Shown here piece after piece: positions 22,412 through 41,616 of a stretch of 64,000 nucleotides of DNA. Under the pieces are notes generated by a model. The model did not search any database. It saw only the letters and a program-made list of their open reading frames with translations, and was not told where the DNA came from. Each line of letters begins with the position of its first letter. Position 1 is the stretch's first letter. A program made the translations under genes and the position numbers. The stretch lies in the sequence record NC_101837.1; one strand, 5' to 3'. This DNA comes from a phage.

Positions 22412-23404
22412 ATGTTTAGGGAAGTTAGGAAACAAGAAATGGCTAAATTATCAACAGAAGAGTTTATAGAGAAGGCGAAAATCATTCACGGTTATAAATA
22501 CGATTACACGAAAACAGTGTACGTGGATTGCTATGCGAAGGTTTGCATTACCTGCCAAATCCATGGGGATTTTATGCAAGCACCTTGTAAACACTTGCAA
22601 GGTCGTGGTTGTCCTTTTTGTGCAAAACTTTCTCGTGCTGCAAAGTGTAATAAAGGTCTTAAATTTGTAGAAAGGGCCAAAGAAATCCATGGAGATAAAT
22701 ATGACTACTCTCTCGTATACTACAAGACTTGCAAAGACAGGGTAGAAATAATCTGCAACACTTGTGGAAATCACTTTACACAGACACCTGATAACCATAT
22801 AAATTTGAAAAGAGGTTGTCCAGTTTGCAAGGGGTCAAGAATCTCACAAAGTAAAACATCACCACACGAAAAGTGGGTTGAGTCCATAAGAAGTAGAAAT
22901 CCTTATGTTGAGATATTGGAAGAAATTATTGGGTGGGATAAGAAAGTCCTGTGCTGCTGTAAAGGTTGTAGCCACACATGGTTAACCGTACCAAGCAGTC
23001 TTAAGCAGGGACATGCTTGCCCTAGATGCGCTAAAACAGGATTTTTATCACACGATAACGGAAAACTCTACATTATGGTTGATGATCCAGAAGTACCTAC
23101 ATTTATGAAAATAGGGGTCAGTCATAATGAAAGTAAGCGAAGAGACCAGATACTTAAAAGTGCACAAAGATCTAGAGCTGGTATCCGCGATCTTCACATA
23201 GTGAAAACGTTGGAAGGATCAACTGAAAACATGCTGGCTGTAGAAAAATCTATGCACAAAGCCTTCAGTAAATATAAAATAAACTTCCCTGTAAAATTTG
23301 ATGGTAGTACCGAATTCTTTAACTACAGACCTGAAGTGTTCAGTATGGTAGAATCAGCGCACAGAGAGATTTGTTGTAAACATAGGACAGGTAATAACCT
23401 GTAG
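22412..23404 (+). CDS. homing-endonuclease-like protein: three zinc fingers plus T5orf172 (GIY-YIG-like) domain
   Basis: Three CxxC...H...C..C repeats, then KLYIMVDDPEVPTFMKIGVS ... GSTEFF typical of T5orf172. Confidence 0.6.
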   Translation: MFREVRKQEMAKLSTEEFIEKAKIIHGYKYDYTKTVYVDCYAKVCITCQIHGDFMQAPCKHLQGRGCPFCAKLSRAAKCNKGLKFVERAKEIHGDKYDYSLVYYKTCKDRVEIICNTCGNHFTQTPDNHINLKRGCPVCKGSRISQSKTSPHEKWVESIRSRNPYVEILEEIIGWDKKVLCCCKGCSHTWLTVPSSLKQGHACPRCAKTGFLSHDNGKLYIMVDDPEVPTFMKIGVSHNESKRRDQILKSAQRSRAGIRDLHIVKTLEGSTENMLAVEKSMHKAFSKYKINFPVKFDGSTEFFNYRPEVFSMVESAHREICCKHRTGNNL

Positions 23405-24602: not shown

Positions 24603-25391
24603 ATGGGTCGAGCTAAAGAAACAAAACGCATGCGTGATGAAGCTAGAGAGGCTCGCAAATCTGATCGCCTGCGTAAGGCTGCTGAGAAATTTGCTGACGA
24701 AAGAGAGCACACCGCTCCAGCTCTCCGACCAATGAATAAGAAGCAGCAAAAGTATCTTGATTATCTAGGGTCACGTAAGATTATTATTGTAAACGGCGTG
24801 TTTGGATCCGGTAAGACATTTATGGCATCTGCATATGCAGGTGATCTTCTGCGTAAGAACGAGATTGATAAGATCATTGTTGCACGTCCTTACGTCCAGA
24901 CAGGAAAGACTTCAGGATTTAAACCCGGAAATGCAATGCAGAAACTGTGGCCCTATCTTCGAAGCATGATGGACACGATTTGTCGTCGTGTTGGCAAAGG
25001 TGCTTTTGCCGCAATGCTGGGAGACGGTCAGAACAGTCGTATCGAGATTTGTGAAGTTGAAAGCATTCGTGGTCGTAGTTTCGATGAGCGATGCTTTGTC
25101 CTGATTGACGAGGCACAGCAAACTAACCCTGAAGAAATGTTGTCAATTATCACAAGGATCTCTGATCAAGCCACCCTTGTAATTATGGGTGATAATAGCC
25201 AACGTGACATCCCTGGTAAATCTGGCCTTGCATGGGTGACGGATTTCTTTACTCGTCATCCAGATCCTGAGGTTGGAATGATCAGCTTTGATAGTCCAGA
25301 CGATGTCGTTCGTTCCGGGTTGGGTCGTCAAATCGCACTCAATCTTATTGAGGATCGTGCAAATCATATTTGGACCCCTGTTTCCGAGTAA
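24603..25391 (+). CDS. phoH: PhoH-like ATPase
   Basis: Walker A VNGVFGSGKTFMA, Walker B FVLIDEAQ. Confidence 0.8.
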   Translation: MGRAKETKRMRDEAREARKSDRLRKAAEKFADEREHTAPALRPMNKKQQKYLDYLGSRKIIIVNGVFGSGKTFMASAYAGDLLRKNEIDKIIVARPYVQTGKTSGFKPGNAMQKLWPYLRSMMDTICRRVGKGAFAAMLGDGQNSRIEICEVESIRGRSFDERCFVLIDEAQQTNPEEMLSIITRISDQATLVIMGDNSQRDIPGKSGLAWVTDFFTRHPDPEVGMISFDSPDDVVRSGLGRQIALNLIEDRANHIWTPVSE

Positions 25392-25435: not shown

Positions 25436-25464
25436 TTGACAAACAGGTAAGCTTTAGATATTAT
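25436..25464 (+). promoter_or_regulatory. sigma70-like promoter
   Basis: TTGACA, 17 bp, TATTAT. Confidence 0.6.
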
Positions 25465-25494: not shown

Positions 25495-25806
25495 ATGGCT
25501 ACAATACAAGAGAGACTGAATAAAATATACTGCCTGTTTGTCTATAACGGCGAGACAATTTTGGCAAATAAAGGATCCAAGAATGTGTGGATCAAGGACA
25601 GCGGTGGTAATATAATCAACTTAGCGTTGCTACGTGAGCGCCGACACAGATTCTTTATCGAGTCTCGAATTATTGAAAGCAGCACTTGCTACAGAACAGG
25701 CGATAAAGTAATTGTTGACAATGATACGTGGTATGTGGTAGATTGGCAATCATTGAGTTGTGATGCTTCTGACAATCGTAAGTACTCCATAGTGATTGCT
25801 AAATAA
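25495..25806 (+). CDS. hypothetical protein (103 aa)
   Basis: ORF after promoter with GGAGAAGGAGA RBS. Confidence 0.45.
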   Translation: MATIQERLNKIYCLFVYNGETILANKGSKNVWIKDSGGNIINLALLRERRHRFFIESRIIESSTCYRTGDKVIVDNDTWYVVDWQSLSCDASDNRKYSIVIAK

Positions 25807-25866: not shown

Positions 25867-26916
25867 ATGAATTTAACACCTCGCAGCACCATGGTACACG
25901 GCATGAAAGAAAAACAGAACGGTTTCGAACCTATGAGTAATAAAATGTTTGGTATGCCGGGCGGTATCATGGAAACATACAGCTACCCAACACCTGTTGT
26001 TGACCACGTTCTTTATATCGACGATTTGGAGGACCTGCAGGATCATATGTCTCGTCTGCAGACGATCCGTATGGCTCAGCCGGAAGAAAGCATTCGTGTG
26101 ATCATCAATAGCCCTGGTGGTTGCGTGCACATTGCAATGGCCTATCTGCAGGCATTCCGCGAGTCTCAGGCAAGCGTTGTTGCACATGCTGAAGGGATGT
26201 GCTGCTCTGCTGGAACAATCTTATGGCTTGGTTGCAAAGAACGTACTGTGGCTCCGGACACAGAATTTATGTTCCACTACTATCAAGGTGGCACTTATGG
26301 TAACGGTGTTAACATGAATACTCAGGTCAGCTACTGGAAAAAACGTTTTGAACACCTGATCGAAAAATACTACGGTGGGGTGCTGACAGAAGATGAGATC
26401 GCATCCATCACAGCTGGTGGCGAAGTGTGGTTGGACGGAGAAGAGTTGGCAGCACGCACTGGAGCTATTATTCTGGATGAAGGCAACATACAACGCATCC
26501 AGAACGGACAAAAACCGAAAAAGCTTCTGGCAAAAGGTGATGAAGAAGGCGTGTTAGGTGAAGCAGGTCTTCCGGAGATTCATCAGTGCACATCTTTAGA
26601 TGAGTTAGTTCATGCTGTTGAATCTGCAAAAGCGGGTGGTTCGAAAGGTGATGTTCACACTGTGTTCCTGAATCTGCAGATGGAAAGTGGCGAGACCGTC
26701 CGAATTGCCCTGGGTGAGATTACTTCAGAAGATCTGCAGAGATTCTCTGTCGTTGAACTTCAGGATATTCTGTCTCAATTGAAGACTACTCTGAACGGCG
26801 GTGAAGAGGTTAAGGTGAAAGATAAGACTCGCAAGCGTCTTGTGGACAATATTATTAAAACAGCAAAAGAGCTCAATGAAAAAATCCTTGGTGCAGGAAT
26901 TGTCGAAGAAGCTTAA
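25867..26916 (+). CDS. ClpP-family serine peptidase with C-terminal extension
   Basis: INSPGG, catalytic-Ser region AEGMCCSAGTILWLG, His region MFHYYQGGTYG; about 150-aa acidic extension. Confidence 0.65.
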   Translation: MNLTPRSTMVHGMKEKQNGFEPMSNKMFGMPGGIMETYSYPTPVVDHVLYIDDLEDLQDHMSRLQTIRMAQPEESIRVIINSPGGCVHIAMAYLQAFRESQASVVAHAEGMCCSAGTILWLGCKERTVAPDTEFMFHYYQGGTYGNGVNMNTQVSYWKKRFEHLIEKYYGGVLTEDEIASITAGGEVWLDGEELAARTGAIILDEGNIQRIQNGQKPKKLLAKGDEEGVLGEAGLPEIHQCTSLDELVHAVESAKAGGSKGDVHTVFLNLQMESGETVRIALGEITSEDLQRFSVVELQDILSQLKTTLNGGEEVKVKDKTRKRLVDNIIKTAKELNEKILGAGIVEEA

Positions 26917-26927
26917 ACATTAATTCT

Positions 26928-26952
26928 AAAGCCCTCTTCGGAGGGCTTTTAT
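26928..26952 (+). terminator. intrinsic terminator
   Basis: AAAGCCCTC-TTCG-GAGGGCTTT then T run. Confidence 0.6.
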
Positions 26953-26967
26953 GATCTGGAGATTTGC

Positions 26968-27501
26968 ATGACTTGTGCTAGAAAACCTGATGAACAACGT
27001 AACGCCTACGATGAGTATGTGACACCGGAATGGTGTGCAGAAGGGCTGTATGACCTTATTCCGTTCCCAGAAGACTGGACCTACTTAGAGCCTTGCAGGA
27101 ATAGTGCCTCAGGTGTGTTCTACTCCCGTATGCCGTTAGGATCTGCATGGGGAGAAATCCAAGAAGGTGTTGACTATCTGAATACAGAATACAACCATGT
27201 TGACTGTATTATCACCAACCCGCCGTACAGCCTGGCTCGTGAGTTTGTGAACAAGGCGTTGAAAGATGCCGACGTAGTTATTATGCTTTTGCGTCTTAAT
27301 TTTCTGGAAAGCAAAGCCAGATTTGAATGGTGGCTTGATAATGCACCTACTACTGTGATCACAATATCTAAGCGTCCATCATTTCAATCAAACGGCAGAA
27401 CTGACGGGCAAGCATATGCATATTTTGTGTGGGATAAGAAAAACCGTTTAGACTTGCCGCCGTTTATGTGGTTGGCACCCCCAGAGGTAGACCTGAAATG
27501 A
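26968..27501 (+). CDS. small DNA N6-adenine methyltransferase (phage Dam-like)
   Basis: IITNPPYS motif; 177 aa. Confidence 0.5.
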   Translation: MTCARKPDEQRNAYDEYVTPEWCAEGLYDLIPFPEDWTYLEPCRNSASGVFYSRMPLGSAWGEIQEGVDYLNTEYNHVDCIITNPPYSLAREFVNKALKDADVVIMLLRLNFLESKARFEWWLDNAPTTVITISKRPSFQSNGRTDGQAYAYFVWDKKNRLDLPPFMWLAPPEVDLK

Positions 27502-39288: not shown

Positions 39289-40663
39289 TAAGTTCTTCTC
39301 TTTTCTTTTACCGAGTAATTCGGGTTTTCTGTTCTCTTCGGTTTGAAGGGGTATGGAGATACACCTGAGTGAACAGGGTGAACAACCGAACCTTTGGCTA
39401 TGGCATTAGCATGGCGAAGCGGACGGGTGACGAAAGAGGGGCCGGAGGACACCAGTCACTGCCATATGATATATGGGTGATAACCTGAAGAGTCTGAATA
39501 AGTGTTTAAGTACCAGTCAGAGGAAAAGGTGAATGGTAGCCGAAGGGGGATGGGGGGTTTCTTGTATCTTTAATTTGTATATTATGTATACACTTGTAAA
39601 CCAATCTCATCTGAATCTGTTTACCACACAAAGCGGATAGAGACAAATATCACCTATTAAACTTGAATTATTTATAGAAAATACCACAACACCAATTAAG
39701 TCTTTGATTTTAAACACAAATCCTACAGATATTCAACCTCCATATTTAACATACTCGTAACATATTCCATACTCTACCTGTCTGATCAATTTACCCAACT
39801 ACATCCCCATATTTTCCCTGTCTGTACTACCCCATCCCCGCCGGGAGTCCCGTCATATCTGGCTTTCCAGCAAATATCACACCCACAAATATCATTGCCT
39901 GAAGAGGGTTTCATCCCATAATACATGCCTTACATGAAGAGCGCTTCATACACCACGTAAATTTTTTAATTGACCTCCCCGCCGCCGGAGAGGTTGGCTT
40001 TTCCCCACACAGACCTGAAGAGTCAGCCAGAAATATCTGAACAGGTCCAGTTCTGCCTTGTCATGAGCCGTAGCGACTGGAGTGCTGCCAGGCGGACGGA
40101 ATGGGAATACTTCTCATTCTTATAATAATTCTCAAATATCGAGGCAGTGAGGCAAATTAATAGGTGAGGCCGTTCACACAGTGGCACAACATTTGCAATC
40201 TATTTTGTGGGGGTGAATGAGAATACCTATCATTGTGAGAACTGTTATCATTACGGGCAATTTAACATAATACCCATTATGCGCACCACTGGCGATCCAT
40301 ACAGGGATTGATAACATGAGTTACAGTTTACGCATATAACAATCATATTTCTTACTATTTGTGTGGGATATAGTTAGCAGCCGATAGATTAGATATTGAC
40401 CTGTGGACTTCCAACCGTCTAGACGTCTAAACGCCCACACAACAAGGATTATACATACATTACTGAATGTAAACAGGGCCGCAAAAATGCTACCATACCA
40501 GTTTGTAAATTTTTCATGCAGCACTTGACAAAGAGAGGAAAAACTTGTCTGACATGCTGGGCATACTTCACACCTTAAACATACTCAACACTGGATACAA
40601 TAACAATTGTTACTATTGCATGCCTCACTGTTCACGTATAGACTATTTGCTCAAAAATGATAA

Positions 40664-40955
40664 GCCATGCCATTCGTTTGCATGATAACAATAACGATCA
40701 ACAACAATAAAGACTGAAATGATAACGTTGTTGATTTGACTGACTAACAATTAACAGGCTAATAATCTATGACATAATATAAAAGCAGGGCAACTATTAG
40801 CAGATCTATAGTTGCCTTGCTTGTTATGTCATGATTAACTAAATACAAGGCAACTATGATCTGATTAATAGTTTGCAGACAAACTATCACGGGGGTGATG
40901 GTTACTGCTTTTATATTATGTCGCGACTCCGTCGCGCCATGCCATTCGTTTGCAT
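40664..40955. repeat. composite repeat: 20-bp direct repeats flanking 18-bp inverted repeats and iteron-like motifs
   Basis: GCCATGCCATTCGTTTGCAT at about 40664 and 40936; GACATAATATAAAAGCAG (40771) and its reverse complement (40905); AAGGCAACTAT-like motif in both orientations between them. Confidence 0.5.
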
Positions 40956-41616
40956 AGTTGCCTTATTGTTACAGATAAAATAATTGTATTGTTAATTATT
41001 TCTTATCTTTCTATTAGTCATCTAATGATTCCAGTTAGTATAGTAACGTACAGTAAACATTAGACGACTAAAGATTTCTCTGATTATGATAACTTGCCGT
41101 GACAATTTCAGACTGTTTACGAAAAATGTTGACACCTGAGCTGATTTATGTTATGCAATTTAAACGAATAATTATTTTATGCAGGTATTGACTATTCTGT
41201 TATCCTATGGTCGGAATAAATACTTAGCAGGCTATAGAATGGTGAGCGTACGTAAATTCTGAGATCTGTCGGCTATAGTTATACTCGATTTTTCACGTAG
41301 AACACGCTTTTTGGTTTGTGTAAGTGTATGACTTATAAAGATTTTTAGTTGTTGACAAGATATTGAAGATGTGCATCAGGTTAAATTTTGTGCAATAGCT
41401 GCATTACGTGCAATTTTGGAAGGAAAACGGGTAAAAATAGCACCGCTACCACACAATGAAAGGTTATGCAATAGTTATTTTACATGTATATTTGTACAGT
41501 GTGTGGGATTGATGGCTCGTCAATTATTCCACTTGCCAGGTAGGGCCGTTTATGGTAGGGAGGAAGAGCAGACAAAAAGAAAGGGACCTAAGCCCCTTGA
41601 TAATTCAGTTAAAAAA

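Follow-up and report, generated by a model that had tools for sequence, protein, structure and literature searches.

Why does a large virulent phage carry a ClpP-like protease gene among its nucleotide-metabolism genes? Such a gene lies in the 64,000-nt stretch of phage DNA analysed here (the window; sequence record NC_101837.1). An earlier note, made from the sequence alone, had proposed that it encodes either a prohead protease located away from the structural module or a protease aimed at host proteins. To choose between these readings, it has to be established what kind of enzyme is encoded, whether the phage has another protease for its head, and in what company the gene is found in other phages. 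The analysis tends to favour a protease with non-capsid substrates.

Gene identity and genome context

By nucleotide search, the window is part of the genome of a Vequintavirus, an rV5-like myovirus. The 4-kb stretch around the ClpP-like gene is 98.8 % identical to Escherichia phage AlexBoehm and at least 98 % identical to more than 100 other records. The + strand of the window corresponds to the − strand of AlexBoehm, roughly positions 68–132 kb, and the head module of the phage therefore falls outside the window. The open reading frame is present exactly as the earlier note had placed it (Table 1), with a good Shine–Dalgarno sequence, AAGGA, 7 nt upstream of the ATG.

The product is gp122 of rV5, listed in the gene table of the rV5 genome paper as a 'ClpP (ATP-dependent) protease subunit' of 349 aa, 38,541 Da and pI 5.0 (PMC3606486, supplementary table). 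The deposited protein of phage ime is 100 % identical to that of the window, and identity across Vequintavirus is 96–99 %. The gene is already known: since the publication of the rV5 genome it has been widely annotated, and more than 100 genomes list its product as a ClpP protease subunit. No functional work on phage ClpP homologues was found in the literature.

Table 1. Features of the ClpP-like protease locus and of the loci in which the protease is paired with PhoH. Positions are those of the window unless a locus is named.
Feature	Position	Strand	Evidence and remarks
PhoH-like ATPase gene	24603..25391	+	Context; recurs upstream of this protease clade in many phages
Sigma-70-type promoter, TTGACA-17 nt-TATTAT	25436..25464	+	11/12 consensus matches (consensus match only); upstream of orf103 and the ClpP-like gene
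orf103 (103 aa, phrog_5456)	25495..25806	+	Directly upstream of the protease; apparently co-transcribed with it from the 25436 promoter
ClpP-like serine protease gene (rV5 gp122)	25867..26916	+	ATG start, 349 aa, 38.5 kDa, pI 5.07
N-terminal region, aa 1–44	25867..25998	+	Low-confidence/disordered in model; family-conserved N25, FG..PG, Y40-P41
ClpP-fold catalytic core, aa 45–200	25999..26466	+	Pfam, PDB/Foldseek searches, model, alignments
G84-G85	26116–26121	+	Invariant pair in family
Ser114, motif CCSAG	26206–26208 (codon)	+	Aligns with E. coli ClpP S111
His137, motif MFHYYQGG	26275–26277	+	Aligns with E. coli ClpP H136
Glu186, third triad position	26422–26424	+	Aligns with E. coli ClpP D185
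Conserved post-core helix LLDxxNIxRxQxGQxP, aa 203–216, then disordered acidic linker, aa 222–237	26467..26595	+	Alignment, model
C-terminal domain, aa 244–349	26596..26913	+	Helix, beta-hairpin 267–281, helix-loop-helix 295–309 and 322–341
Hairpin, 9-bp GC-rich stem, UUCG loop, then UUUAU	26928..26949	+	dG −14.9 kcal/mol, z = −2.8
Dam-like N6-adenine DNA methyltransferase gene	26968..27501	+	Directly downstream throughout Vequintavirinae and in Barbavirus
PhoH-protease pairing loci	L004, L007, L008, L010, L012, L013, L017; IMG/VR L018–L072		PhoH on same strand, 0–3 kb upstream

Catalytic core and active site

The Pfam domain CLP_protease (PF00574), a broad model that takes in phage proteases as well, matches aa 59–168 of gp122 (E=3.5e-12, 47 bits against a cutoff of 20.2). 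The match to the PHROG family phrog_5410, 'ATP-dependent protease', covers the full-length profile (E=2.2e-154, aa 24–345), and phrog_1827 matches with E=3e-40. A sequence search of the PDB returned ClpP chains only, and a Foldseek search of the PDB with an AlphaFold2 model of the monomer, in which the core of aa 45–200 is confident, returned ClpP and SppA only.

Active-site residues were placed by alignment to an E. coli ClpP reference sequence, the numbering of which reproduces the precursor S111, H136 and D185. In a MAFFT alignment, Ser114, His137 and G84-G85 are invariant in 187 of 187 family members, and the catalytic Ser and His regions that the earlier note had seen as ClpP-like are thereby borne out. 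The third triad position varies, being D in 98, Q in 44 and E in 37 of these relatives. Since the Ser, His and GG are invariant in proteins that are otherwise ~25–35 % identical, a working enzyme is argued for. We infer from the alignment that gp122 is a catalytically competent ClpP-fold serine protease, with Ser114 as the nucleophile, His137 as the base and Glu186 in the third position.

A non-catalytic ClpP-like protein, which would inhibit host ClpP, act as its decoy or have a purely structural part, would fit both the Gln at the third triad position in 44 of the 187 relatives and the failure to reach the curated ClpP thresholds described below. The invariance of Ser, His and GG at such low identity is, however, a strong argument for retained catalysis, and a protein of this kind is considered highly improbable.

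Family assignment and relation to cellular ClpP

None of the curated NCBIfam family scores is reached. The NCBIfam model NF045542, 'head maturation protease, ClpP-related', gives 60.6 bits against a cutoff of 120 (E=1.8e-16), TIGR00493 (clpP) gives 33.2 bits against 308.6, and the other NCBIfam ClpP models give 21–39 bits against cutoffs of 228–361. There is no match to Pfam Peptidase_S49 at E<=0.01. The best profile matches outside its own clade are also to head-maturation proteases, namely phrog_1684 (E=8e-22), 94, 2976 and 133. On the curated cutoffs gp122 would be called neither a cellular ClpP nor a ClpP-related head-maturation protease, and as judged by profile its sequence is nearer to the phage ClpP-related head proteases than to cellular ClpP. 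The earlier note had left the family open between S14, S49 and the prohead proteases; a ClpP/S14-like fold with a Ser-His(-Glu) site is supported and S49 is not, while the curated cutoffs for both cellular ClpP and the ClpP-related head proteases are missed. In annotation, the names 'ATP-dependent Clp protease subunit' and 'head maturation protease' are both unwarranted for the rV5 gp122/ICP1 gp211 clade.

Clp ATPases dock on cellular ClpP by way of its N-terminal loop and the hydrophobic Tyr60/Tyr62 pocket, which receives the IGF loop, and Arg170 is a sensor residue. In the alignment with the E. coli reference, the equivalent of Tyr60 in gp122 is Arg77, the position being R in 61, H in 34, T in 20 and Tyr in 11 of the 187 relatives. 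The position of the Arg170 sensor is Gly185, and Arg is not conserved there across the family. The 44-aa N-terminus is unrelated to the axial/gating N-terminal loop of cellular ClpP. Because the Tyr60 and Arg170 positions are not kept and the N-terminus is unrelated, the 'ATP-dependent' label is without support in the sequence. Docking onto host ClpX or ClpA in the manner of cellular ClpP is probably not to be expected, an argument that draws on few positions in the alignment to the E. coli reference.

These differences bear on whether gp122 could be a true ClpP subunit which, by forming rings that dock on host ClpX/ClpA or by mixing with host ClpP, would redirect the ATP-dependent proteolysis of the host. 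The ClpP fold, the intact handle-length region and the Ser-His-acid site all agree with such a role, and no Clp ATPase gene is annotated in the AlexBoehm genome, so that any unfoldase would be that of the host. It is, however, quite unlikely, given the wide margin by which every curated ClpP model is missed and the altered pocket, sensor and gating loop. In addition, as weak evidence, a Keio screen with the V5-like phage LL12 found no clp gene among those required, and the paper never mentions clp.

The C-terminal extension

The earlier note had described an acidic extension of about 150 aa. The length is as described (149 aa, aa 201–349), and the acidity is moderate, with 26 acidic and 19 basic residues (net −7, pI 5.06). 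The extension is not a plain tail; it holds a folded, conserved domain. AlphaFold2 models aa 244–341 with a pLDDT of 75–95, and F293, E297 and R322 are conserved. No significant structural match to this domain of ~100 aa was found in the search.

An HMM of the C-terminal domain detects it throughout Vequintavirinae, including Certrevirus CR9 (E=5e-14). When iterated, it also matches the tails of 17 more distant sequences, which lie beyond P0001–P0040 and, except for P0042, come from the representative search. The long tail of ICP1 gp211 gives E=0.31 and has no relation detectable with this HMM; the impression by eye that it carries the same domain is therefore unsupported. About 40 of 188 relatives are essentially tail-less.

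In four methods, the last two helices resemble HeH/SAP/Rho_N domains (PF07498, PF12949, PF02037), never significantly. The basic character of this segment is not kept among the relatives, which argues against a conserved nucleic-acid-binding role.

Neighbourhoods of the homologues

Annotated neighbourhoods of the homologues were compared in 10 phage lineages (14 genomes). The lineages sampled were Certrevirus, a Seunavirus-like Salmonella phage, ICP1, Pakpunavirus (two genomes), Otagovirus, two T5-like genera, an N4-like Alteromonas phage, Barbavirus, Vibrio phage K470, a KVP40-like Vibrio phage and an Acinetobacter phage. The neighbours are always DNA- or nucleotide-metabolism genes (NrdAB, PhoH, ligase, dCMP deaminase, dNMP kinase or DHFR) and never capsid genes. 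It is typical of this clade of large virulent phages as a whole that the gene lies away from the head genes.

Scanning IMG/VR yielded 78 loci with homologues, which were clustered by single linkage; many of the contigs are truncated and shared ancestry inflates the counts. With PhoH detected by crude ORF calls and an HMM built from eight phage PhoH proteins, a same-strand upstream copy is present in 16 of the 18 Vequintavirinae-like loci, in 13 of the 29 that belong to a short (~200–260 aa) environmental clade and in 0 of the 16 that belong to a gut-metagenome clade of 381–383 aa. Among the ORFs flanking 13 environmental loci of the short clade, the most frequent Pfam families are PhoH (6), PD-(D/E)XK nuclease (6), RNR small subunit (3) and NT5C (3), and capsid, portal and terminase are absent from the 25 neighbour families listed. 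In the gut clade the order is terminase gpA, lambda-type portal, ClpP-like protein, capsid protein E, and the position of the ClpP-like gene is that of a genuine head protease. From these contrasting neighbourhoods it follows that the family includes genuine head proteases as well as a separate non-structural clade, and that gp122 belongs to the latter.

The recurrent pairing with PhoH (Table 1) spans many unrelated phages and is seen in Vequintavirinae, ICP1, Otagovirus, Barbavirus, Vibrio phage K470, Acinetobacter phiAB441 and Alteromonas V22, in the last of which the pair is CDS-146/147 (PMC7289586). In Otagovirus phiPsa267, the PhoH and ClpP-like ORFs overlap. No discussion of the pairing was found in the literature. 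The protease and the PhoH-like ATPase might form a functional module, as the two components of an ATP-dependent protease peculiar to phages or by carrying out two steps of a single pathway. The ClpP-fold peptidase would then rely on PhoH for its ATP-dependent step or to be directed to substrates bound to nucleic acid. The close same-strand synteny, the rank of PhoH as the most frequent neighbour family and the shared temporal class of the two genes in ICP1 are in keeping with this idea. On the other hand, PhoH is not an AAA+ unfoldase, the T5-like, KVP40-like and N4-like carriers have no adjacent PhoH, no gene fusion was seen (the domain listing shows PF00574 only) and the synteny could be inherited with the nucleotide-metabolism module. 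A six-frame search of the PaP1 genome found no PhoH, the sole matches (E=0.004) falling on the terminase; PaP1 has the protease, and an obligate partnership is thereby ruled out. A direct functional coupling of the two is improbable on this evidence; if true, it would give phage phoH a biochemical role.

Local gene order, promoters and timing

From upstream to downstream, the genes around the protease in the window are NrdD, a homing endonuclease, NrdG, PhoH, orf103, the ClpP-like gene and the Dam-like methyltransferase, and the window is without capsid genes. The placing of the gene by the earlier note, among nucleotide-metabolism genes and away from the capsid, is accordingly accurate.

For orf103, a weak homologue is found in the same place in the Seunavirus-like Salmonella phage SEW_6S (30 % identity, E=9e-7), and there is no match in Pfam, NCBIfam or PADLOC. 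Its product, for which the rV5 table gives a pI of ~8.6, might regulate the protease or be a partner of it. A relation of either protein to anti-phage defence was considered and set aside, there being no PADLOC match for the protease or for orf103. The hairpin that follows the protease gene is probably a weak intrinsic terminator or an RNA-stabilising hairpin.

Near-consensus sigma-70 promoters (>=11/12) number 20 in the window, against ~1.5 expected from shuffles. All 20 are co-oriented with the genes, on the + strand before ~39.3 kb and on the − strand after ~42 kb, which suggests that unmodified host RNA polymerase transcribes the region throughout. The sole transcriptomic data found for a homologue are those for ICP1 gp211, which is classed as 'Middle-late', a class close to late, together with PhoH (gp208), gp209 and gp210, whereas the structural genes are 'Late' (PMC7567579, main text and supplementary table).

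Some further features of the region were noted. A DNA adenine methyltransferase gene also lies directly downstream of the ClpP-like gene at L007 6035–6547, L008 5921–6601 and L012 4774–5586; the Dam-like gene abuts the ClpP-like gene in CR9 and in the Seunavirus-like Salmonella phage, and Barbavirus, which shares the arrangement, is unrelated to Vequintavirinae. The homing endonuclease between nrdD and nrdG (22412–23404, + strand) is a free-standing protein of 330 aa with treble-clef zinc fingers and a T5orf172 domain. It is full-length in only 2 of 118 related phages (WalterGehring and Mangalyan), is missing from AlexBoehm, and looks like a sporadic mobile insertion. At ~39300–41400, gene orientation and GC skew switch within a stretch of ~2 kb that is almost without ORFs (GC 0.386) and that corresponds to the 'non-coding' box of the rV5 map. 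This stretch contains a perfect 18-nt inverted repeat (40771–40788/40905–40922), a 15-nt hairpin (40783–40822) and a perfect 20-nt direct repeat at 40664 and 40936, 272 nt apart. An origin, a regulatory region or an RNA region might lie here.

A separate protease in the head module

The genes of the head module in AlexBoehm are, in order, terminase, portal, 'prohead protease' (139 aa), 'head scaffold protein', decoration and major capsid; the module is separated from the ClpP-like gene by ~31 kb on the circular map or 98 kb on the linear one. The 139-aa protein matches Pfam Peptidase_S78_2/XkdF (PF14550) with 65 bits against a cutoff of 24; Pfam also assigns the capsid protein to Phage_cap_E and identifies a Mu-like portal. 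PaP1, which has the ClpP-like homologue, carries a homologous head module that includes an XkdF-like gene. Likewise, the capsid cluster of ICP1 (gp122–126 in the numbering of that phage) includes its own predicted protease, gp125 (PMC7567579).

The XkdF/S78_2 protease and the scaffold fill the canonical slot, and therefore gp122 is taken to be a second, non-morphogenetic protease. The displaced prohead protease put forward in the earlier note is disfavoured, as the slot is occupied by a different protease in AlexBoehm, PaP1 and ICP1. Rather than a head-maturation assignment with scaffold or capsid genes alongside, the opposite was found in AlexBoehm, the near-identical relative.

In the virion proteome of Certrevirus CB7, the protease in the XkdF position and the next protein were detected among the head-module products, and nothing of the size or position of the ClpP-like protein was seen (PMC7344957). 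Likewise, rV5 gp122 is not among the virion proteins listed in the main text of the rV5 paper. Both absences are weak evidence, because maturation proteases often leave the capsid.

An accessory morphogenetic protease, targeted into procapsids by its C-terminal helix-loop-helix in a scaffold-like manner and acting alongside or instead of the XkdF-type protein, has also to be weighed. Some scaffolding proteins bind coat protein through a C-terminal helix-loop-helix, and the C-terminal domain of gp122 ends in two amphipathic helices. The best non-self family matches are head-maturation proteases, a more distant homologous clade does sit between portal and capsid genes, and the ICP1 homologue peaks just ahead of the late genes. 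Against this, in rV5-like phages, PaP1 and ICP1 the slot holds an XkdF/S78_2 protease and a scaffold, and in CB7 it was the homologues of these two that were detected in virions. The gp122 gene is distant from the head genes on either map and stands behind a sigma-70-type promoter, and short members of the clade that lack the C-terminal domain retain the same non-structural neighbourhood. An accessory role in head assembly is thus unlikely.

The XkdF-type prohead proteases of AlexBoehm (L001 3955–4374) and PaP1 (gp048; L009 3525–3995) have as their best match phrog_1530, which is labelled 'DNA methyltransferase', and PaP1 gp048 has been deposited as an 'N6 adenine-specific DNA methyltransferase'. 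This label is probably an annotation error that has spread from a fusion family.

Proposed role

On balance, and with somewhat more confidence than doubt, gp122 is proposed to be a ClpP-fold protease that is active in the cytoplasm in the pre-late period, has a tethered domain for recruitment, acts on non-capsid substrates and is independent of the XkdF-type head protease. It would be made before the late genes, in the early or middle period, along with the nucleotide-metabolism genes and PhoH. The protein would be proteolytically active, would presumably assemble into rings and would act in the cytoplasm of the infected cell, without ClpX or ClpA, on host proteins or on phage non-structural proteins. 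As the second protease of the phage, it would work beside the XkdF-type prohead protease of the head module. The beta-hairpin and helix-loop-helix domain, held on the flexible acidic linker, would most likely recruit a partner or substrate. The other suggestion of the earlier note, that of a protease aimed at host proteins, here widened to other non-capsid proteins, is consistent with the position of the gene, the type of promoter, the timing in ICP1 and the conserved neighbourhood.

Hundreds of therapeutic-candidate phages (rV5-like, PAK_P1-like, ICP1 and some T5-like) carry this conserved, apparently active protease, which in these phages is not needed for the textbook step of capsid maturation. 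Should host or defence proteins prove to be degraded by it, or should it cooperate with PhoH, it would bear on host takeover and on the role of phage phoH.

Comparison with known systems

The rV5 gp122/ICP1 gp211 family (phrog_5410 and phrog_1827) is the one to which the gene in the window belongs, with no difference from the Vequintavirus members. ICP1 gp211, PaP1 gp041 and others have the core, the catalytic residues and the non-structural genomic position in common with gp122; unlike gp122, the PaP1 and T5-like members have no C-terminal tail.

With cellular ClpP (MEROPS S14), gp122 shares the alpha/beta fold, the SPGG, xSAG and MxH motifs, the handle-length segment and the acidic third position. 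It differs in its additional 149-aa C-terminal region, in having Arg in place of the pocket Tyr and in lacking the Arg sensor.

By profile, no named family is closer to gp122 than the ClpP-related head-maturation proteases, which have its fold and Ser-His site and frequently carry C-terminal extensions. The clade that lies in head modules, between portal and capsid protein E, is 30–33 % identical to gp122 and has a completely different neighbourhood.

SppA and lambda gpC (S49) share the clan and fold with gp122, and SppA is among the Foldseek matches. S49 peptidases use a Ser-Lys dyad, whereas the invariant His of gp122, at the position of the ClpP base, fits a Ser-His site.
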